64,000 bases of DNA from an uncultured Litoreibacter sp. (GTDB taxonomy: Bacteria; Pseudomonadota; Alphaproteobacteria; Rhodobacterales; Rhodobacteraceae), in the NCBI RefSeq assembly GCF_947501785.1, contig NZ_CANMXB010000001.1:1319048-1383047 (forward strand), given 5' to 3'. Each line of letters opens with the position of its first letter. Positions within the stretch are counted from its first letter, which is position 1. Below the pieces are notes generated by a model. The model ran no database searches, had not been told where the DNA came from, and saw only the letters and a list, made by a program, of their open reading frames with translations. This document shows positions 2,971 through 31,090 of the stretch, one piece after another. Position numbers and translations under genes: made by a program.

Positions 2971-3942
2971 ATGAAGTTGTTGAAACGTTTGGCATCCGCG
3001 GGCAAAAGGCGCCTCGTCGGAGCCGCACCCGAAGCCCCGCTCTGGGACCATCTCGACGCCTGCGGCATTCCGTTTCGCACCCCGATGGCCGATCTGATTT
3101 CCCAATACGGGTCCTACCCGATTGGGTGGAGCGAGGCTCTCGACACCTGCACGCCGCAAGGCCACGCGCAATTCATTGCGGGGCTGGCCCACCAGCCCAC
3201 TTTCCAGTTTTCCCGCGACACCGACCTGCTGGTGCCGGCCAACTACTTCTTCTGCGCCGTGCAGGAAAGCGCTGACCACCGCCTCAACTACGCCAAGGCG
3301 ATCCATGCGCTTGTCGGCCTGTTTGGCAAAGGCGAGCCGTCAAGCACGTCGAACACGGTCGCGCGGGAGTGGCGGTTCGGCCATGCGAGGCTCAGCTGCA
3401 CCGTCTGGCCGCCTGAGCGCCAGGACAAGGGCCGCAATTCCCGGCACGACATGTTTCCAGAAACCATTACCGAAGCGTCGATTACCTTCACCCCCGCGTG
3501 GCGGCCGCCGCTCAGCGCCGAAGAACGCGCCTATTGCGAGACCGCGCAGCCTTTGGATTTGGGCGCGCACCAATCCGCCGCCTACGGCCCTGTCGGCCCG
3601 CTGACCCGCGACTGGCCGGGTGACTTGGCGTCCCTGCCCCTCGGCCCGGCTTTCGCGCAAGACGATGCGGCGCTGCTATGCGCCACCGCGCCCGGGCTGG
3701 TCGACATCGTGCCACGCAGCTGGATCACCGCCATAGCCCTGGATCGCATCACCGGCGGTCGGGGCGGCATGGAGGCACTTGTGAAGTTGAATTTCGCCCG
3801 CTCCGGCCAGACCCATTTGCCAGAAAGCTGGATCACGCTGGCCTACGCCCATGGCGACCCGCACGCGCTGGATGCGCAGGCGGAGCAGTTGGCAGCCCGG
3901 CTTGGCCTCGAAATCAAGCTCTATGAAGGTCCTTCGGACTAG
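2971..3942 (+). CDS. hypothetical protein
   Basis: 323-aa ORF with coding-like codon bias. No signal peptide or motif recognised. Its stop overlaps the stop of the convergent MATE gene by 4 nt. Confidence 0.6.
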   Translation: MKLLKRLASAGKRRLVGAAPEAPLWDHLDACGIPFRTPMADLISQYGSYPIGWSEALDTCTPQGHAQFIAGLAHQPTFQFSRDTDLLVPANYFFCAVQESADHRLNYAKAIHALVGLFGKGEPSSTSNTVAREWRFGHARLSCTVWPPERQDKGRNSRHDMFPETITEASITFTPAWRPPLSAEERAYCETAQPLDLGAHQSAAYGPVGPLTRDWPGDLASLPLGPAFAQDDAALLCATAPGLVDIVPRSWITAIALDRITGGRGGMEALVKLNFARSGQTHLPESWITLAYAHGDPHALDAQAEQLAARLGLEIKLYEGPSD

Positions 3943-5303
3943 CCGCCTTGCGCCACACCTGCCGACATCTCGCGGAAGCGGCGCAGGAAGCGCCACCACA
4001 GCAGCACCGTGGCAAACAGCAAGCCGATGACCAGCCCCATCCACACGCCCACCCCGCCATAGCCCAGCGTGATGCCAAGAATGTAGCTGGCTGGGATGCC
4101 CATCACCCAATAGCTGAACGCGGCCATGATCATCGGCACGCGGGTGTCCTGGATGCCGCGCAGCACGCCAAGCGCCATCACCTGGCCCGCATCCACCAGC
4201 TGGAACAGCGCCGCCACCGCCAGCAGGGACGCGCCTATGGTCAGGATCACCTCCCGGTTCGGCTCGTCGGGGGCGATGAAGCCTTTGATCAGCAGTTCGG
4301 GCACACCGAGGAACGCGATCATCGTCAGCCCGACAATCCCAAGCGACAGCCCGACGCCCGCCATCCCGCCGCGCCCCAGCCCCGCCATGTCGCCCCGCCC
4401 AACCGCGCGACCAGCGCGCACGGTGACCGCCTGGCTCAGCCCGATATGGATCATGAAGGTGGCGCTGGTGATTTGCAGCGCAATTCCATGCGCGGCCAGC
4501 GGCAGCTTGCCAATCAGCCCAATGATCAGCGCGGAGGCGGAAAACATGCCGCTCTCGGCCAGATTGGTCAGCCCAATGGGCCAGCCCAGCCGAAACACCT
4601 CGTCCAGCGCGCCCGTGTCGGGCCGCCAGATGCGCTGGAACAAGGCGTGGTCCCGCAGCCCGTCGACCTGCGTGGCATAGAGGCCCAGCGCCGCGAGGGT
4701 CAGCACCTGCGTCAGCACCGATGCCAAAGCCGCGCCGCGCAGCCCCATTTCCGGGAAGCCGCCATTTCCGAAAATCAGCAGCCAGTTCAGCCCCGCATTG
4801 ACGCCAATCGCCGCGACGGTCACCCACAGCACCACCTGCGTGCGCTCCATCGAGGCCAGGTAGCTTTTCAGCACCATCACCAGCAAAGACGGGAACAGCC
4901 CGAAACCGGCGATGCGCAGATAGTCTTGCGCCAGCGCCGACAGCTCCTCCGTCTGCCCGGCCAATTGTAGCAAGGCCCCCGACCAGATCATTGCGGGCAG
5001 GAACACGGCGGCATAGATCACCGACAGCCACATCCCCATGCGGGTGACGCGGCGTATGCGCATCGCGTCGTCTTTTTCGGCCGCTTCCGCCACCATCGGC
5101 ATCACCGCGAAGGCAAAGCCCGACCCCATGATGAACACCACAAAGAAGAAGGAGGTCGCCAGCACCGAGGCCGCCAGCGCCGTCAGGTCATACCACCCCA
5201 GCATGATGGTATCGACCACATGCACGGCAAATTGCGCCAGGTGGCTGCCAATGAGTGGCAGCCCAAGAACCAGAAGGGCGCGTATGTGCTGGGGGTAGGT
5301 CAT
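3939..5303 (-). CDS. MATE family efflux transporter
   Basis: 454 aa, about 12 predicted TM helices. The N-terminus 'LLVLGLPLIGSHLAQFAVHVVDTIMLG' is typical of NorM/MATE proteins. Confidence 0.9.
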   Translation of the reverse strand: MTYPQHIRALLVLGLPLIGSHLAQFAVHVVDTIMLGWYDLTALAASVLATSFFFVVFIMGSGFAFAVMPMVAEAAEKDDAMRIRRVTRMGMWLSVIYAAVFLPAMIWSGALLQLAGQTEELSALAQDYLRIAGFGLFPSLLVMVLKSYLASMERTQVVLWVTVAAIGVNAGLNWLLIFGNGGFPEMGLRGAALASVLTQVLTLAALGLYATQVDGLRDHALFQRIWRPDTGALDEVFRLGWPIGLTNLAESGMFSASALIIGLIGKLPLAAHGIALQITSATFMIHIGLSQAVTVRAGRAVGRGDMAGLGRGGMAGVGLSLGIVGLTMIAFLGVPELLIKGFIAPDEPNREVILTIGASLLAVAALFQLVDAGQVMALGVLRGIQDTRVPMIMAAFSYWVMGIPASYILGITLGYGGVGVWMGLVIGLLFATVLLWWRFLRRFREMSAGVAQGG

Positions 5304-5351
5304 GGCCCAGCGCTACGCCTGCGCCGGGGCCATTTCAAGCGGTAATGCGCG

Positions 5352-5699
5352 TCAGTACATGTCACCTTCTTGGCGCGGCGCGGTGGGGTTCGCCTTGTTC
5401 TTTAGCTGGCGGCCCAATTCCCTTTCGCATTCCTTCAAGCCGGCCGCCGATGGCCCGCCAAGGCCAATGTCGCAGCTTACCACAACATTCAAATGGTGAG
5501 CCCTCTCGCCTTTTGGAATAAGGACGTAGGAGCTTTGGTTGACCTGACTGTCGCTGTGTTCGACGTCGTCCGCTGTGTAGATATCGTATTGCGTGCCTTC
5601 GTATTCATACGTGCCAATGCGCTTGAAATTCTCAAACGACGAGCAGGCGCTCACCGCCAATATCAGCCCCGCCGCCAATGTCTTCGCAATTGCCTTCAT
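5352..5699 (-). CDS. small lipoprotein, paralog 1 of a three-member family in this window
   Basis: I trimmed the 167-aa track ORF to the ATG at 5699. The product is MKAIAKTLAAGLILAVSAC... (lipobox LAVSAC), 115 aa. It shares 'IGTYEYEG.QY.IY', a Cys...LKEC pair and a C-terminal 'RQEGDMY' with the ORFs at 7370 and 10253. It ends 48 nt upstream of the MATE start. Confidence 0.7.
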   Translation of the reverse strand: MKAIAKTLAAGLILAVSACSSFENFKRIGTYEYEGTQYDIYTADDVEHSDSQVNQSSYVLIPKGERAHHLNVVVSCDIGLGGPSAAGLKECERELGRQLKNKANPTAPRQEGDMY

Positions 5700-6025
5700 T
5701 ATCGGTCTCCCCTTCTCTGTCCCTCTTGCAAGTACCGCGCGTTGCCAACACGCGTTGCCAAAAGGATGGCCCAAAGCGCGGCGTTCGACGTCACCAATTC
5801 TGGTGATGCGGCCCAAAAAGTTTGGCTGTCCGGATGTCGCTCCATTTGGTCTCAAATACTCATATGTCCCCGCTGGCCCGACGCGCGCCCTTCGGATCAG
5901 GGCGGGCGCCGAGCACCGCGAGGCTAAATATGGCGCGCGCCGCAGGCGCTCAATCAGGTCACGCTTGCCTCACGCGCGGCGGCTGTGACATAGCGGTGCA
6001 GCAAGACTGACAGGCGAGACCGATT

Positions 6026-7348
6026 ATGGACACCGACACGCTGCCCCCTTTCGTGGCCCAGGCATTGGACTATCTGGCGCAGGGCTGGGACATTGCCCAA
6101 GGCTGGTTGCTGTCCCCCGCCGCATGGTCGCAATTTGCCATTCTGGTGGTGGCTTATGGTCTGGCGGTGGTGGTCAGCCGCATGGCGGTGCCCCGCATCG
6201 CCAAAGTGCTGACCCCGCCGGCAGACAATCAATCCGCCCTCGCAACCGCGCGCCGTTTCGTGCTGCAATTCCTGCCGCTGCTCTTGCCGCTCATCGCCTT
6301 CGTGTTGACTGGCGTCGGCGAACAGGCCACGCGATCAATCTTCGGCTCCGGCGAGGTCATCGCCTTTGGCAAACGCGTCTTCATCTTCATTGCCGCCCGC
6401 ATCTTCGTGCGCGACATTCTGAAGGTCCCGTTCCTCAAGCTTCTTGGCAAATACATCCTGATCCCGGTGGCCGCGCTCTATGCGGTCGGGCTTTTGGACA
6501 ACGCCACGCTGTTTCTGGAAGACACCCGTGTGCAGATCGGCAATATCGGCTTCTCGCTGATGGCGATCGTGCGCGGGGTCATCGCGGGGTCGATCCTGTT
6601 CTGGCTCGGTGGCTGGTCCAACCAGCAATCCGCTGACTATATCGAGCAGCAGGAAATCCGCCCCTCGCTGCGCACGCTGCTGATCAAGGCGGTCGAGTTC
6701 CTGATCTTCGGCGCGGCGTTCCTGTTGTTGATGAACATCATGGGCATCAATCTGTCCGCTTTGGCCGTCTTGGGCGGCGCCATCGGCGTGGGCCTCGGCT
6801 TCGGCCTGCAGAAAATCGCGTCCAACTTCATCTCCGGCGTGATCTTGCTCTTGGAAGGTCAGGCCACCGTCGGCGACTACGTGGAACTCGATGGCGGCGA
6901 ACAGGGCAAGATCGTCAAGATGATGGCCCGCGCCGCCATTCTGGAGACGTTCGACGGCCGCTGGGTCGTGGTGCCCAACGAGGATTTCATCACCACCCGC
7001 GTCATCAACTACTCCGACTCCGGCTCCGCCAACCGGTTCGAAGCCCCCTTCTCCGTCACCTACGAGACCGACATCAACCGCGTCCCTGACATCGTGGAAA
7101 AAGCTGTCGCCACCCACAAGGACGTGCTGTCCGAGCCCTTCCCCCCCGATTGCGAGCTGCGCGGTTTCGGCGAAAGCGGCGTCGACTTTGCTTGTGAATT
7201 CTGGGTGAACGGGCTGGATGACGGGGAGCATAAATACACCTCCGACATCCTGTTTTTGATCTGGAACGCGTTGAAGGACGAAGGCATCGAGATGCCCTAC
7301 CCGCGCCGCGTTATCGAAATCAAAGGCGGGATGCCCGGTCAGGACTAG
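6026..7348 (+). CDS. mechanosensitive ion channel (MscS family) protein
   Basis: 440 aa with multiple N-terminal TM helices. The MscS core is 'GVGLGFGLQKIASNFISGVILLLEGQATVGDYVEL...GKIVKM..RAAILETFDGRWVVVPNEDF'. Confidence 0.9.
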   Translation: MDTDTLPPFVAQALDYLAQGWDIAQGWLLSPAAWSQFAILVVAYGLAVVVSRMAVPRIAKVLTPPADNQSALATARRFVLQFLPLLLPLIAFVLTGVGEQATRSIFGSGEVIAFGKRVFIFIAARIFVRDILKVPFLKLLGKYILIPVAALYAVGLLDNATLFLEDTRVQIGNIGFSLMAIVRGVIAGSILFWLGGWSNQQSADYIEQQEIRPSLRTLLIKAVEFLIFGAAFLLLMNIMGINLSALAVLGGAIGVGLGFGLQKIASNFISGVILLLEGQATVGDYVELDGGEQGKIVKMMARAAILETFDGRWVVVPNEDFITTRVINYSDSGSANRFEAPFSVTYETDINRVPDIVEKAVATHKDVLSEPFPPDCELRGFGESGVDFACEFWVNGLDDGEHKYTSDILFLIWNALKDEGIEMPYPRRVIEIKGGMPGQD

Positions 7349-10747: not shown

Positions 10748-12700
10748 ATGTCCGACCTTCTGAAGACCGAATCCGCAGATCAGTATGACGCCTCCTCCAT
10801 CGAGGTGCTGGAGGACATGGAACATGTCCGCCTGCGCCCCGGCATGTATATCGGCGGCAAGGACGAGCGCGCGCTGCACCACATGGTCGCCGAGATCATC
10901 GACAACTCGATGGACGAGGCCGTCGCCGGTCACGCCACCTGGATCGAGGTGGAGCTGCATGATGGTGGCCATGTCTCCATCCGCGACAACGGCCGCGGCA
11001 TCCCCACCGGCCCGCACCCCAAGGACCCGTCAAAGTCGGCGCTGGAAATCATCTTCTGCACGCTGAATGCGGGCGGCAAATTCTCAGGCGATAGCTACCA
11101 GACCTCTGGCGGTTTGCACGGCGTCGGCTCCTCCGTCGTCAACGCGCTGTCGGACTATCTGCGCGTGGAAGTGGCCCGCAACAAAGAGCTCTTCGCCATG
11201 GAATTCTCCCGTGGCGTGCCGCAGGGCAAGCTGGAAAAGATCGGCGCGGCCCCCAACCGGCGCGGCACAGCCGTCACCTTCCACCCGGATGCCGAAATCT
11301 TCGGCCCGCTGAAGCTGAAACCGGCGGTGCTCTACAAGATGGCCGAAAGCAAGGCCTACCTGTTCTCCGGCGTCGAAATCCGCTGGAAGACCGGCATTGA
11401 CGACGGCACCACACCGTCGGAGGCCAAGTTCCGCTTCCCCGGCGGGCTGTCGGACTACCTGATGCAAACGCTGGGCGGCTCGACAACCTATGCCGATGCG
11501 CCCTTCGCGGGCTCCGTGTCGTTCGAGAAGTTCAACGCACCCGGCAAGGTCGAATGGGCGATCAACTGGACCCCGTCGCGCGACGGGTTCATGCAATCCT
11601 TCTGTAACACCGTCCCAACGCCCGAGGGCGGCACGCATGAGGCGGGCTTCTGGGCTGCGATCTTGAAAGGCATCAAGGCGTATGGCGAGCTGACCAACAC
11701 CAAGAAGGCCTCCACCATCACCCGCGAGGATCTGACGACCGGGGCCGGCGCGCTGGTCAGCTGCTTCATCCGCGACCCCGAATTTGTGGGCCAGACCAAG
11801 GACCGGCTGGCCACGGTCGATGCGCAGCGCATGGTGGAGAATTCGGTGCGCGACCATTTCGACAACTGGCTTGCCGCCAACACCAAATCCGCCGGAGCCA
11901 TCCTCGACTTCCTCGTGCTGCGCGCCGAAGAACGCCTGCGCCGCCGCCAGGAAAAGGAAACGGCCCGCAAATCCGCAACCAAGAAGCTGCGCCTCCCCGG
12001 CAAGCTGACCGACTGCACCGCCAAATCGCGCGAGGGCACCGAGCTGTTCATCGTCGAGGGCGACTCCGCTGGCGGCTCCGCCAAAGGCGCGCGCAACCGT
12101 GAAACGCAGGCGCTGTTGCCGCTGAAAGGCAAAATCCTGAACGTGCTGGGCGCGGCCTCAAACAAGCTGACCACCAATGCCGAGATTTCCGATCTGTGCG
12201 AAGCGCTCGGCTGCGGCATGGGCGCGAAGTTCAACGCTGACGACCTGCGGTATGAAAAGATCATCATCATGACCGACGCCGATGTCGACGGCGCGCATAT
12301 CGCGTCACTGCTGATGACCTTCTTCTTCGTGCAAATGCGCCCGCTGATCGATCAGGGCCACCTGTATCTGGCCTGCCCGCCGCTTTATCGCCTCACCCAA
12401 GGCGCGCACCGCATCTACGTCCCCAATGACGAGGAAAAGGACAAGATGATGGAGAAGGGTCTGGGCGGCAAAGGCAAGATCGACGTGCAGCGGTTCAAAG
12501 GTTTGGGCGAGATGGACGCCAAGGACCTCAAAGAGACCACCATGAACCCCAAAACCCGCCAGCTCATCCGGGTCACCCTAGGCGAGGACGTTCCGGGTGA
12601 GACCGGCGACCTGGTCGAGCGGCTGATGGGCAAGAAGCCGGAACTGCGGTTCGAGTACATTCAGGAGAACGCGCGGTTTGTTGAGGATGTGGATGTTTAG
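10748..12700 (+). CDS. parE: DNA topoisomerase IV subunit B
   Basis: 650 aa. GHKL ATPase N-terminus 'LEDMEHVRLRPGMYIGG', Toprim 'ELFIVEGDSAGGSAK' and 'IIIMTDADVDGAHI'. The length is typical of alphaproteobacterial ParE rather than GyrB. Confidence 0.9.
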   Translation: MSDLLKTESADQYDASSIEVLEDMEHVRLRPGMYIGGKDERALHHMVAEIIDNSMDEAVAGHATWIEVELHDGGHVSIRDNGRGIPTGPHPKDPSKSALEIIFCTLNAGGKFSGDSYQTSGGLHGVGSSVVNALSDYLRVEVARNKELFAMEFSRGVPQGKLEKIGAAPNRRGTAVTFHPDAEIFGPLKLKPAVLYKMAESKAYLFSGVEIRWKTGIDDGTTPSEAKFRFPGGLSDYLMQTLGGSTTYADAPFAGSVSFEKFNAPGKVEWAINWTPSRDGFMQSFCNTVPTPEGGTHEAGFWAAILKGIKAYGELTNTKKASTITREDLTTGAGALVSCFIRDPEFVGQTKDRLATVDAQRMVENSVRDHFDNWLAANTKSAGAILDFLVLRAEERLRRRQEKETARKSATKKLRLPGKLTDCTAKSREGTELFIVEGDSAGGSAKGARNRETQALLPLKGKILNVLGAASNKLTTNAEISDLCEALGCGMGAKFNADDLRYEKIIIMTDADVDGAHIASLLMTFFFVQMRPLIDQGHLYLACPPLYRLTQGAHRIYVPNDEEKDKMMEKGLGGKGKIDVQRFKGLGEMDAKDLKETTMNPKTRQLIRVTLGEDVPGETGDLVERLMGKKPELRFEYIQENARFVEDVDV

Positions 12701-13587
12701 ATATTTGCACTAGCTAGCAACTTCATCAGCTGTGTTTCTGAAATAAACTCGGGCTTACCGGAGGCTTCTCTTAACTTAATAGCCTTTTCAATTTTGGTAC
12801 CTTTGTGAGTATATTTCCAGTCCCGAGAAGACTCATTTGCTATTATCACGAAATTGGTTTTCTTGCATGGCGACGACTTTGCCCGTGCGCCACATGCAGC
12901 AAGGTAGTCCTCAAGAATTCGACGCGGTTTAGTTTCGAAGTTTCCTGTCAACACAAGCAGCGAATTCTCAAAGTCGTCTATCGAAGATAGTGTCGCTTCT
13001 TCAAATACCGGCACATATCCAAGCGAACTGATTCCAGTATCTGCGTAGCAATCTCCCACTAGCCGGGTGATCGCGCGACAAATCTCCTGTGATTCCCCCG
13101 GGTCGATCACTCCATCATCTACTGAATCCGCACAGCAGACGACGATGGTACGAGAAATGGGATCTTCCAGAACTGACGGTGATGCTGCTGCCATATTAAG
13201 CACCCCCTGCGCCTCCTCAAGAGTGATTAGGTCATCACAAGCTATTCCTGAGCAATAGCCCATAAACCTATTTATTTCTGTTTTTTGGCAGTTCTGCTTT
13301 AGGTTCTTGCTTCGGAATACAACTATGTCTTCCAGCTGCTGAAAATCCAAAACGTCAGCTTTGAAATCCTCTAGTATGTCGTATGCGTCTTCGTCCCCCA
13401 TTGCGTCCAACATCTGCGCGCATACAACAACCAAAGGTTCAACTTCACCAAGCTCAATTCTTTGACTCGCCCGGACACCCTCCAGAAACCCAGTAAAATA
13501 GCCTGAAAATTTTCCGTTATTAGCCTCACGGTGAACACGCGCAAGTGCATCACTACCAACATCCCAAGTATTCAATTCACTCTCCAT
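12697..13587 (-). CDS. BRCT domain-containing protein with repeated acidic helical N-terminal modules (function unknown)
   Basis: 296 aa. The C-terminus 'LLVLTGNFETKPRRILEDYLAACGARAKSSPCKKTNFVIIA...GTKIEKAIKL...FISETQLMKLL' fits the LigA-type BRCT pattern. The N-terminus holds repeats of the form 'F.GY..G....I.L.E' and 'DDGVIDPGESQ'. The gene is clearly AT-richer (about 40-45% GC by eye) than its flanks. Confidence 0.8.
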   Translation of the reverse strand: MESELNTWDVGSDALARVHREANNGKFSGYFTGFLEGVRASQRIELGEVEPLVVVCAQMLDAMGDEDAYDILEDFKADVLDFQQLEDIVVFRSKNLKQNCQKTEINRFMGYCSGIACDDLITLEEAQGVLNMAAASPSVLEDPISRTIVVCCADSVDDGVIDPGESQEICRAITRLVGDCYADTGISSLGYVPVFEEATLSSIDDFENSLLVLTGNFETKPRRILEDYLAACGARAKSSPCKKTNFVIIANESSRDWKYTHKGTKIEKAIKLREASGKPEFISETQLMKLLASANI

Positions 13588-13844
13588 ACAGAAATATTTT
13601 ATTTGAAATCACGTTTGCCAAATCGTGGATTAGAACCGCTTTCAATGCAACATCCGTAGTCAAAGCTGGCAAGCCGTAGCACGCGTCGGGTGCATATTAA
13701 CACGCACCACCCCACCCAAGCCGCGCAGGAATGCGCCGAAACCCAAAGTAAAATACACGAAATCGGGAAACCGCCGCTCCAATTCCCCATGAAACGCTGC
13801 CACCCGGTCCCAACCTCTAAGTTACCCCCAACAGAAAGGACCCT

Positions 13845-14084
13845 ATGCAATTCAATTTCATGTACAGCTCGTTCAGGGACTTCTTCTCCTCCTTCACCTC
13901 GCCACGGGCGGAGGTCAGGCCGGGCTTGAACCACACCAATCTCCGCGTGCAAAAACGCGGCACCGCCGCCAACCCTGAATACATGTTGCGCTTCAGCTCC
14001 TGGGGCAACATCCTCTATGTGCGCCTCGACGAGCACGAGTTTGACCGCCTGGAAGCGGCCTTTGACGAAATCAAGCGGGCCTGA
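13845..14084 (+). CDS. hypothetical small protein
   Basis: 79 aa with strong G/C third-position bias. AAAGGA SD 6 nt before the ATG. No motif recognised. Confidence 0.55.
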   Translation: MQFNFMYSSFRDFFSSFTSPRAEVRPGLNHTNLRVQKRGTAANPEYMLRFSSWGNILYVRLDEHEFDRLEAAFDEIKRA

Positions 14085-23487: not shown

Positions 23488-23635
23488 GCCGGGCCTGTTG
23501 CCAACGTGACGGGAAGTCTGCTTTGAGCCCAAATTGACTGTTGCTGCAAGATACACGATCGGCGGCTAATCGCAGAAAGTGGACTTTGCAAAGTATTCCA
23601 AGATCAACAGAACAACTTACCTCTTATATTCAAAA

Positions 23636-24094
23636 CTATCGAGTAAACGGGATGTCGCCATAGGCCCAAATGACTGTGCCAGCACACGCTAGAACAAAAC
23701 CAATTGATGGTAACAGCTTGCGGACTGGATGCACCCAGCCTCTCTCAAACGTTCTGTACCCAGTCGCGTGACCCAAGTTGGCGAACTCGACAAAAACTGA
23801 AGCGGCAACCAACAATGCACCTGACCTCTGAAACCAATACATGGGCTCTTCGGCGCAATCGCGACGGTCCCAGCCGAAACTGAGACAAACGAAAACAATC
23901 GAAGCGATTAGAGACAAAGCGGACAAAACTTCCATGCTTACACGGTACGACATGTTCCAAGTTTTGAAGTCTCCAGTAACCTCATTTTCATGAAATTTTT
24001 GTGCCTCTTGACCGCGCCAAACAAGCATCCACGAAAGGAAAGCTATGCGAATTTCTGTTCTCTTTTCTCGGGTCCACACTTGTTCAATTCCCAT
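23636..24094 (-). CDS. hypothetical membrane protein encoded in a very AT-rich patch
   Basis: 152 aa with 3-4 predicted TM helices. The surrounding DNA (23.5-24.3 kb) is by eye the lowest-GC stretch in the window. Confidence 0.55.
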   Translation of the reverse strand: MGIEQVWTREKRTEIRIAFLSWMLVWRGQEAQKFHENEVTGDFKTWNMSYRVSMEVLSALSLIASIVFVCLSFGWDRRDCAEEPMYWFQRSGALLVAASVFVEFANLGHATGYRTFERGWVHPVRKLLPSIGFVLACAGTVIWAYGDIPFTR

Positions 24095-24271
24095 TTATGG
24101 CGGCCGAGCAATACGTTCAGAACAATCCGTAGATTAGGCTGAGTCCTGCAAGCGTTTGCTCATGGTTGGTGGGCGATCACACTGGATTTGTCTTAGTGCG
24201 GACACTCTCAAAATGCCAACATTATCCGTTCGGTTACTTGGTAAACGCCATGATACAATGTCCGCTTTGGG

Positions 24272-25597
24272 TTGGAACCGCTCATCGAGCGTATTTGCCT
24301 AGAGGTCTGTTTTGTCCCGCAATGCAGCCAACTGAGACAGGATAGTGGGGAGCCTTCGTCGACTGTCCGCTTACGAGCCCAGGTGGACATCCATTTTGCG
24401 AAGACGCTAAGATCATCTGTGTCGTTTAGCCAAGATCTTGCACCCATTCTGGACGTCGTAAAACGGATCGACCCGAGCTTTGGATCGGTCGATCCTGAAC
24501 AGATCGCTTCTCATGCCGAAGATGCCCATCGGTACGCGTCAGGGACTGCAAAAGACCGTTTCCTGCTTTCGGCGATGCGTCTGCTGGCCCTGTCAGGCAA
24601 TCGCCACACGCGCCTGATCCCCAATGATGCAATCCATGTACTGCCGCTTCGATTCGTAACAGTCGGGACGTCGGTGTTCCTGACGAAAGCATCAACGCCG
24701 GTCGCAGAATTTGCGCCCTGCAAGCTGGTCGCGGTGAACGGCGTCCCTGTCGAACGTATCGAACGCGCGGCAGAATGCCTGTTGGCGGGGACATCGCAGA
24801 GGAAACGCGTGATCGGGCCGCTGCTATTTGCCTGGCCGGCGGCTTTGGTCCATCTGGGGTGTGCATCAAGCGGTGACAAAACCCAATATCAGTTTGAAAC
24901 TGGCGACGGGCACACAGCCAAGGCGAATGTGTCTATCTCTGATGCTGTCCCGGCGTCGGAATTCTATCCCAGCAACGAGCATGGCCAGGTTGATCCCGTC
25001 TGGTCCCCAAATGGTTTTGTGGCCATCCACGACTACGCCGATGACGGCCTCGCATTGACGCTGCCAAGTTTCTTCGATCCTGACGAACGCGCGTTCCCCG
25101 AAGCAATTGACAGGGCCGCCACTTGGGTCCGGTCCCGGCGCGACGGCTTCCTTGTGATCGATCTTCGAGGCAACACAGGAGGCGACTTTCTGGCGACGAT
25201 GCCGCTGATCGACGCTATCACCGAAAGCGCCCGGACAAACGGCTGCGCCGTGCTGGTGGATAAGTTCACCTTCTCTGCTGCAATCGTCTTTGTCGCGATC
25301 CTGCGATATCGGCTGAAGCGCAAGCTGCAAATCATCGGAGAAGACATGGGCGACGGTCTCAGGTTTTTTGCGGAAGGTGGCCTGATCGAGCTGCCAGCCA
25401 GCGGCGCATCCATTCGCTACTCAACCGCGCTTCACGATTGGGAAAACGGGTTGGCTGATCAAACGACGCCGCCCGAAATCGCGCGCCAGATTGTGGCGGT
25501 TGGCAAGCTCGAAATTGATCGGACTTGGGTCACGGCACCTTTCGACGCGACGCCGAAAGATGTCCTGTACAGACAGCTGATCAATGATTTGGCTTAA
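24272..25597 (+). CDS. S41 (C-terminal processing peptidase)-like protein; start uncertain
   Basis: 441-aa ORF from a TTG. 'FLVIDLRGNTGGDF' resembles the S41 'DLR.N.GG' motif, and 'DKFTFSAAIVF' sits where the catalytic Ser segment would be. No PDZ domain is obvious. GC is intermediate. Confidence 0.55.
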   Translation: MEPLIERICLEVCFVPQCSQLRQDSGEPSSTVRLRAQVDIHFAKTLRSSVSFSQDLAPILDVVKRIDPSFGSVDPEQIASHAEDAHRYASGTAKDRFLLSAMRLLALSGNRHTRLIPNDAIHVLPLRFVTVGTSVFLTKASTPVAEFAPCKLVAVNGVPVERIERAAECLLAGTSQRKRVIGPLLFAWPAALVHLGCASSGDKTQYQFETGDGHTAKANVSISDAVPASEFYPSNEHGQVDPVWSPNGFVAIHDYADDGLALTLPSFFDPDERAFPEAIDRAATWVRSRRDGFLVIDLRGNTGGDFLATMPLIDAITESARTNGCAVLVDKFTFSAAIVFVAILRYRLKRKLQIIGEDMGDGLRFFAEGGLIELPASGASIRYSTALHDWENGLADQTTPPEIARQIVAVGKLEIDRTWVTAPFDATPKDVLYRQLINDLA

Positions 25598-31013: not shown

Positions 31014-31090
31014 CGGGCTATGGCGCAGCCTGGTAGCGCGTCCGTCTGGGGGACGGAAGGTCGCAGGTTCGAGTCCTGCTAGCCCGACCA
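31014..31090 (+). tRNA. tRNA-Pro (anticodon GGG)
   Basis: Hand-folded cloverleaf. Acceptor stem CGGGCTA/TAGCCCG with discriminator A and encoded CCA. D stem GCGC/GCGC. Anticodon stem TCCGT/ACGGA with loop CTGGGGG (anticodon GGG, G37). T stem GCAGG/CCTGC with loop TTCGAGT. Confidence 0.9.

Follow-up and report, generated by a model that had tools for sequence, protein, structure and literature searches.

The window analysed here is a stretch of 64,000 nucleotides from an uncultured Litoreibacter sp. (Rhodobacteraceae, Alphaproteobacteria; assembly GCF_947501785.1, contig NZ_CANMXB010000001.1, positions 1,319,048 to 1,383,047). Directly behind parE, the gene for subunit B of topoisomerase IV, it contains a gene of low guanine-plus-cytosine (GC) content on the minus strand, whose 296-aa product combines two TerB-like helical units with a C-terminal BRCT domain and belongs to the family of Orf2 of Vibrio phage K139. 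The gene is single-gene cargo in a hypervariable low-GC hotspot abutting the parE stop. A function of this chromosomal family member in phage defence or superinfection exclusion is the most likely one and is proposed here with modest confidence; any specific mechanism of defence deserves much less. An unannotated "BRCT domain-containing protein" gene of marine Rhodobacteraceae is hereby tied to a phage protein reported (1999) as preventing superinfection. The gene is a new chromosomal member of this known, barely studied phage superinfection-exclusion family, and its hotspot is apparently unreported.

The gene and parE are convergent and share their last bases. The hexamer GTTTAG at 12695-12700 holds both stops in a TTAG overlap, namely the TAG of parE at 12698-12700 and the TAA of the minus-strand gene at 12697-12699, exactly as an initial annotation, made from the sequence without database searches, had placed them. 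Its description of a low-GC island of one gene is borne out as well. GC content of the segment 12697-13620 is 0.453, compared to a mean of 0.618 (sd 0.027) in windows of equal size in the rest of the 64 kb (z = -6.2), and the kilobase of the BRCT gene has the strongest tetranucleotide deviation within the window. At third codon positions the GC content (GC3) of the gene is 0.438 versus about 0.75-0.85 in the remaining long open reading frames (ORFs) of the window. In comparison with the closest relative (L036, see below) the foreign tract is a little longer than the island of the initial annotation. The features of the region are the following:

12697..13587 (-): low-GC cargo gene with ATG start, 296 aa, K139 Orf2 family (PHROG 3989); two TerB-like helical units and BRCT
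12701..13761 (no strand): low-GC accessory tract, 1,061 bp, GC 0.464; missing from the closest relative, which has a different low-GC cargo there
13294..13524 (-): helical unit 1, residues 22-98; G33, G37 and E48 conserved in the broad family
13033..13293 (-): helical unit 2, residues 99-185, duplicate of unit 1; G110, G114, D118, E125, D158 and E165 conserved, GDxYxDTG motif at its end
12709..12996 (-): BRCT domain, residues about 198-293, with Pfam, profile and fold matches
10748..12700 (+): parE, topoisomerase IV subunit B, 650 aa, with HATPase_c, DNA_gyraseB, Toprim and DNA_gyraseB_C domains
13593..13621 (-): promoter-like hexamers TTGGCA-17-AATATT directly 5' of the ATG, a match to consensus only
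13845..14084 (+): 79-aa ORF, conserved right flank, kept in the closest relative, where homology is back from 13762

The initial annotation had seen no integrase and no direct repeats at the flanks of the gene. Indeed, no integrase ORF is present in the window, Rfam yields no match, and flanking repeats are short and at chance level only. Promoter and terminator searches of the slot in the window revealed no mobile-element site motif, no phage genes surround the gene in the window, and no tRNA lies near the slot, the sole tRNA of the window being tRNA-Pro at 31014-31090.

BRCT domain, helical units and phage relatives

BRCT (PF00533) is the only Pfam domain in the 296-aa protein (residues 205-270, 24.9 bits compared to a gathering score of 21.3), and it is matched by all 22 of the 22 close family members. 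A profile constructed from 22 relatives retrieves the BRCT domain of LigA (1l7b, E = 2.8e-6) and that of RFC1 (2ebu/2k6g, about 2e-4). In the AlphaFold2 model (mean pLDDT 83.6), residues 13-180 form nine helices, followed by a linker of low confidence and a canonical BRCT fold with beta-alpha-beta-beta-alpha-beta-alpha order (E210-214, H222-231, E235-237, E246-249, H264-276, E280-283, H284-293). Foldseek with the full model returns the BRCT domains of RFC1, XRCC1 and LigIV with a probability of 1.0; the matches include 2ebu, 2k7f and 7u19. Profile and fold both confirm the BRCT assignment, and the peptide motifs quoted initially are all present in the translation. The claim of a stand-alone BRCT protein holds, as no ligase, polymerase or nuclease domain was found in the 296-aa protein by Pfam, NCBIfam, profile and fold searches.

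Residues T214, G215 and R222 correspond in the alignment to T, G and R in the BRCT domain of RFC1; these we take to be its 5'-phosphate-contacting pocket residues. Of about 110 distant relatives, 97 keep T214, 106 G215, 91 R222 and 98 K265. The phosphate-pocket residues of the LigA/RFC1 subtype are present as conserved positions, and a pocket is predicted on this sequence basis. The BRCT domain possesses, furthermore, a family-specific S-x-x-W insert (residues 254-257).

Membership in two other BRCT protein families was considered and rejected. The C-terminal ~90 aa match the BRCT domains of LigA and RFC1 (p140) by profile and fold, whereas the adenylation, OB, zinc-finger and HhH domains of such proteins, as well as the AAA+ module, are absent. 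With LigA only the BRCT region matches, and the NCBIfam scores of 22.5 and 16.9 bits are far too low, the respective cut-offs being 369 and 444. The label "NAD-dependent DNA ligase" that some relatives bear is a misannotation of the BRCT domain. PRK06195 ("DNA polymerase III subunit epsilon", a DEDD exonuclease-BRCT protein) likewise shares its C-terminal BRCT part with the protein, with a match limited to residues 203-290 and a score of 27.1 bits versus a cut-off of 373. As modelled, PRK06195 has no duplicated helical module, and the protein of the window lacks the exonuclease domain.

The N-terminal part is an internal duplication. Residues 22-98 and 99-185 align to each other in hhalign with a probability of 98.6% (E = 9e-16), and both units start with L-x-G-F-L-x-G-I-x-A-D-G-x-I-x-x-x-E, in agreement with the repeated acidic helical motif noticed initially. 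The likeness of this motif to TerB and the DjlA N-terminal domain was upheld only in part. Members of the TerB superfamily (TerB PF05099, DUF533 PF04391, DjlA N-terminal domain) share the helix-loop-helix units with an A-D-G-x-I-x-x-x-E acidic motif. Among Pfam families, TerB matches the unit 2 consensus best (E = 2.4e-4), with 21.8 bits against a cut-off of 24.4 and only a third of the model covered. TerB matches at E <= 0.05 occur in 13 of 111 distant relatives, none of those with a listed score reaching the cut-off, and DUF533 matches in six of the 111, one of them above the cut-off (35.7 versus 29.6 bits). The protein of the window itself, however, has no TerB match in Pfam at E up to 10, and none of its 22 close relatives has one at E up to 5. 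The TerB resemblance of the helical units is sub-threshold.

Residues 1-195, modelled separately (pLDDT 76, pTM 0.75), gave no significant match to the PDB in Foldseek (best E = 0.66); the TerB-like structure 2h5n reached E = 7.6 only. Further candidates for the identity of this domain were discarded. Foldseek of the full model returned nothing but BRCT matches, and the sole PDB sequence-profile match of the N-terminal domain, a 2S albumin, was judged spurious. A match to the DNA mimic DMP19 (E = 0.11) was limited to a single member. A cysteine metal cluster was dropped because C100 and C170 are invariant among close relatives only, with S/E and L in the broad family. One protein of the representative search (P0071, 2967 aa) contains 28 separate matches to the helical-unit residues 117-161; the acidic D-G-x-I-x-x-x-E hairpin therefore occurs elsewhere as a long tandem repeat.

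A word-indexed search recovered 42 full-length relatives with 43-78% identity, the named ones being Rhodobacteraceae (Celeribacter, Marinovum, Primorskyibacter). The profile of the N-terminal domain alone recovered 323 cluster representatives (50% identity), nearly all of them about 290-300 aa long, which implies the same architecture; a Pfam BRCT match was found in 87 of 111 scanned representatives. PHROG 3989, a family annotated as "unknown function", is matched by the protein over its full length (E = 5e-31), residues 20-293 corresponding to positions 10-294 of the 296 in the profile. In tblastn, 93% of the query aligns with orf2 of the temperate Vibrio cholerae phage K139, with kp3 of phage Kappa and with relatives of the two (E = 3e-14), and the family aligns with K139 Orf2 in hhalign over 277 columns (probability 99.6%, E = 1.6e-24).

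K139 Orf2 and Kappa kp3 resemble the protein of the window from end to end, with 301 versus 296 aa and the same succession of duplicated helical units, linker and BRCT domain. Shared with K139 Orf2 are the motifs of the helical units, a G-x-F/Y-x-D-T-G motif in the linker and the TG, R, S-R-D-W and G-x-K-I-E motifs of the BRCT domain. The genes differ in their setting. According to the K139 annotation, the phage copy belongs to a lysogenic operon in a prophage (PL -> cI - orf2 - glo - int), in which glo is annotated for phage exclusion, whereas the copy of the window is lone, chromosomal and convergent with parE, with no lysogeny module, repressor or other phage gene nearby. For K139 Orf2, a review with reference to Nesper et al. 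1999 reports that superinfection immunity was observed.

Several relatives are of interest for their domains or neighbours. P0066 and P0123 carry an extra DEDD 3'-5' exonuclease (RNase_T) N-terminal to the helical units and the BRCT domain. P0123 is located in the margin of a prophage, where a CI-like HTH repressor immediately precedes it and a serine recombinase is close by. With K139 and the P0123 prophage, there are two lysogeny modules in which a relative immediately follows the repressor gene. Pseudomonas phage Lodos has a shorter relative two genes downstream of its integrase, and one distant relative adjoins a Rap1a immunity gene. An origin as a plasmid gene was considered and dropped, as the plasmid search gave only 3 weak or partial matches. 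The literature searched contained nothing on a combination of TerB and BRCT, on BRCT in prophage exclusion, or on the domain make-up or wide distribution of Orf2.

The slot behind parE in related genomes

The gene was sought within 5 kb of parE in the 80 species whose ParE C-termini are most similar; these include uncultured Litoreibacter at 91-98% ParE identity and two Celeribacter species. It was found in none of the 80, all of which keep parE. In the closest relative, L036, another uncultured Litoreibacter sp. (parE 88% identical in nucleotides), homology ends exactly at the parE stop (window 12700) and is back at window 13762. The slot in between (5901-7369 of L036) is occupied by a low-GC BglII-type restriction-modification pair, consisting of an MT-A70 methylase (5974-6606) and an endonuclease (6611-7336); the BglII-type endonuclease is also present in the slot of L061. 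The absence from all nearest species and the replacement by a restriction-modification pair support an accessory gene and agree with the initial statement that it has no housekeeping function. Identity of parE to L036 is uniform right to the stop; therefore no imported 3' end, i.e. no recombination tract, is visible.

Across species, parE is the conserved left anchor of a variable slot. A low-GC tract of 0.45-1.75 kb, starting at most 200 nt from the parE stop, is present in 46 of the 69 Rhodobacteraceae species that could be evaluated among the 80 ParE-selected loci. All loci together contain 97 low-GC slot ORFs in both orientations, which fall into 73 clusters, 65 of them singletons. Often these ORFs and the parE stop have one or a few bases in common, and several start by an ATGA-type overlap. 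The domain scan of the cargo covered 27 of the 97 ORFs. Pfam detected HEPN_AbiU2 (two), BglII endonuclease, MT-A70, GmrSD_N, RelA_SpoT, DUF3800, HNH, Abi_C and a nucleoside deoxyribosyltransferase-like domain among them, while PADLOC reported NsnA, type II methylase and endonuclease, PD-T4-2_A, PDC-S33, PDC-S42, a TIR effector, HEC-05/06, SspE and AbiJ. The occupants of the slot in other species thus include a RelA/SpoT toxSAS-like protein, and a VasI-like protein of the type VI secretion system (T6SS) is another. Shared k-mers that would mark an attachment site were not found across 91 slots. Judged by its sequences, the slot appears to be a defence hotspot of Rhodobacteraceae without mobile-element signature.

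Defence hotspots flanked by core genes are known in Pseudomonas and Acinetobacter (PMC10250203, PMC11723918). The core defence hotspots of Pseudomonas aeruginosa (PMC10250203) and those of Acinetobacter (PMC11723918) share with the parE slot the fixed position at a core gene, the differing defence systems and the lack of integrase and repeats. The parE slot differs in being tiny (0.45-1.75 kb, one or two genes), in starting at the stop codon of an essential gene, commonly with an overlap, and in spanning a bacterial family, not one species. No report of a parE-adjacent hotspot was present in the literature searched.

In the first 0.5-1.8 kb after the parE stop of L036-L115, most slot ORFs are singletons that neither Pfam nor PADLOC recognises, and they are candidates for new defence genes. 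The hotspot, in the first kilobase behind parE, is compact and easily found; in the species sampled it holds dozens of unrelated small genes, mostly without family assignment, and it is a ready source of candidate defence genes in roseobacters, which are ecologically important and little studied for phage defence. One record of the set, L063, is labelled Nocardioides marinus strain DP1N28-1, although its ParE is 85% identical to the Rhodobacteraceae query and is followed by a typical low-GC slot; this record is probably mislabelled or contaminated.

A scan with one genome per species located the gene family itself at 30 loci. Neighbours of the homologs, whose survey had been suggested initially, give a mixed picture. 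In about 20 of the 30 loci, from several genera, the family gene adjoins parE, mostly convergently and only a few bases from the parE stop; in L008 and L009 it is located upstream of parE on the same strand. L033 (uncultured alphaproteobacterium, 3521-6861) has it directly downstream of gyrB (741 aa, with GyrB insert domain), again on the same strand, which could be coincidence, a second hotspot at the 3' end of the paralog or a hint at topoisomerases. The remaining loci adjoin lepA, yebC or leuA, and other homologs lie in prophage modules. All known carriers in the scan are high-GC alphaproteobacteria. The family copies have a GC content of 0.43-0.50 in nearly all loci, compared to 0.56-0.69 in the flanks. 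Exceptions with host-like GC (0.64-0.67) are L027, L028 and L030, metagenome-assembled genomes (MAGs) of Roseovarius with the gene next to yebC, and the uncultured alphaproteobacterium L032; these lineages may have fully assimilated the gene. Another Roseovarius MAG, L011, possesses a second lone low-GC gene (11105-11962, 285 aa, GC 0.43, no Pfam match) 4 kb from the BRCT gene.

The shared stops of convergent genes, seen in the window at 12697-12700, recur at the equivalent positions in L015 and L031. Since shared stops leave no space for a terminator, transcription of parE must read antisense into the cargo gene, which could damp the expression of the latter.

In Roseovarius, dS of the gene is 0.09-0.48 and that of parE 0.25-0.60, with a dN/dS of the gene of about 0.10. 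Because the dS values are similar and dN/dS is low, the gene is regarded as functional and as inherited alongside parE for some time without gain in GC. In Celeribacter, the synonymous sites of the gene are saturated and those of parE are not. Distance matrices of the gene and ParE are partly congruent (Mantel r = 0.53, p = 2e-4), but the protein forms two deep clades without counterpart in ParE. The copy of the window is about 50% diverged from all other copies, although by ParE the window is closest to Celeribacter baekdonensis. The gene is a patchy, long-lived accessory gene of the slot with occasional replacement or transfer.

Function and alternative explanations

A role in phage defence or superinfection exclusion is favoured by the defence-type cargo of the hotspot together with the homology to K139 Orf2, and both support the anti-phage context at which the initial annotation had guessed. 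Several points weigh against such a role. Identity between the protein of the window and K139 Orf2 is only 24%, and the functional claim for Orf2 goes back to one sentence in a review. PADLOC-DB 2.0 does not recognise the protein as a component of a known defence system (only PDC-S48 is matched, with E = 0.011, by the BRCT segment). The helical domain is without significant structural match, and no enzymatic effector domain is present, which makes the way of stopping a phage speculative. The location in a hotspot and of relatives in lysogeny modules is guilt by association. Finally, the position next to parE in about 20 of 30 loci and next to gyrB in one could hint at a role related to topoisomerases.

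If the protein does act against phages, the predicted BRCT pocket might bind to the phage genome as it enters or replicates, either at a 5'-phosphorylated DNA end or nick or through a phosphoprotein on it. The TerB-like module, which may bind metal or oligomerise, would then block processing such as ligation or circularisation, or call in a nuclease of the host; relatives with the fused exonuclease would bring their own effector. DNA ends are suggested as the target because an exonuclease is fused in some relatives. The BRCT pocket for DNA ends as a phage sensor is a testable idea. A more far-reaching proposal, which we put forward only tentatively and consider rather doubtful as a whole, is that the Orf2 family constitutes a widespread one-protein anti-phage system that senses DNA ends or nicks via its LigA-type BRCT pocket, and that a few hundred bases behind the parE stop form a Rhodobacteraceae-wide defence hotspot, the cargo of which turns over by parE-anchored homologous recombination, conceivably aided by gene-transfer agents, with no mobile element involved.

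The placement of phage relatives would also suit a phage-derived sensor of lysogeny or DNA damage, which decides between maintenance and induction by sensing DNA ends and is present here as a remnant or in domesticated form. The relatives within the cI operon of K139 and beside a CI-like repressor in another prophage fit such a sensor, as does the BRCT domain as a classic DNA-damage module. However, phage genes are lacking around the gene, both in the window and at about 30 chromosomal loci, the lone gene is kept by purifying selection, and the review gives superinfection immunity for Orf2, not control of induction. A sensor of this kind is unlikely.

The neighbourhood of parE raises the question of whether the protein is an accessory factor of topoisomerase IV/gyrase or DNA repair, inherited vertically and working with ParE, e.g. 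by sensing or protecting cleaved ends. The adjacency to parE in about 20 of 30 loci from several genera, in two orientations and with a variable other flank, the position directly downstream of gyrB in L033 and the co-divergence with parE in Roseovarius (similar dS; matrix correlation as above) are in line with this. Against it stands the absence of the gene from all 80 nearest species, which retain parE. Unrelated restriction-modification, Abi and toxin-type genes fill the same slot in other species, so that the hotspot explains the adjacency. Members of the family occur away from any topoisomerase gene in Rhodobacter, Limimaricola, Roseovarius, phages and plasmids, the convergent genes with overlapping stops do not form an operon, and ParE lacks the split of the protein into two deep clades. 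A role as partner of topoisomerases or of repair is less likely still than the sensor.

Equally little weight is given to a selfish or addiction-type cargo, toxin-like or anti-defence, which would persist since its loss is costly and would offer no protection from phages. Hotspots also gather toxin-antitoxin and counter-defence genes, the toxSAS-like and VasI-like proteins mentioned above sit in the same slot elsewhere, and one distant relative lies beside the Rap1a immunity gene. Yet the gene is single, without partner antitoxin and without a recognisable toxin fold, and as it is frequently missing from close relatives its loss is tolerated.

The horizontal origin that the initial annotation had read from the low GC content, i.e. 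a recent transfer from a low-GC donor without amelioration, is just as improbable in this recent form: GC3 (0.44 versus 0.80), the sharp edge at the parE stop and the absence from the closest relatives favour it, but orthologs have a GC content of 0.43-0.50 in nearly every genus, even after co-divergence with the host (Roseovarius dS about 0.5; Celeribacter saturated), few copies have host-like GC (L027, L028, L030, L032), and the known carriers are all high-GC alphaproteobacteria. Low GC does not indicate a recent low-GC donor here, because low-GC homologs lie beside parE in about 20 other species and have co-diverged with it in Roseovarius. Low-GC homologs at this position in all relatives had been named initially as grounds for refuting the horizontal origin; this applies in part, and the absence from the 80 nearest species points the other way. 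Rarely recombining accessory genes miss the GC enrichment seen in core genes, as expected from population-genetic theory. The best explanation for the persistent low GC is that the gene, being accessory, does not take part in the GC enrichment that recombination brings to core genes; a recent donor is not needed, and low GC alone should be treated with caution as a sign of recent transfer.

A second low-GC, tetranucleotide-deviant patch is located at 23500-24500 of the window (GC about 0.49). It contains an ORF of 152 aa (23636..24094, minus strand), hydrophobic by eye, and may be another small accessory insert.

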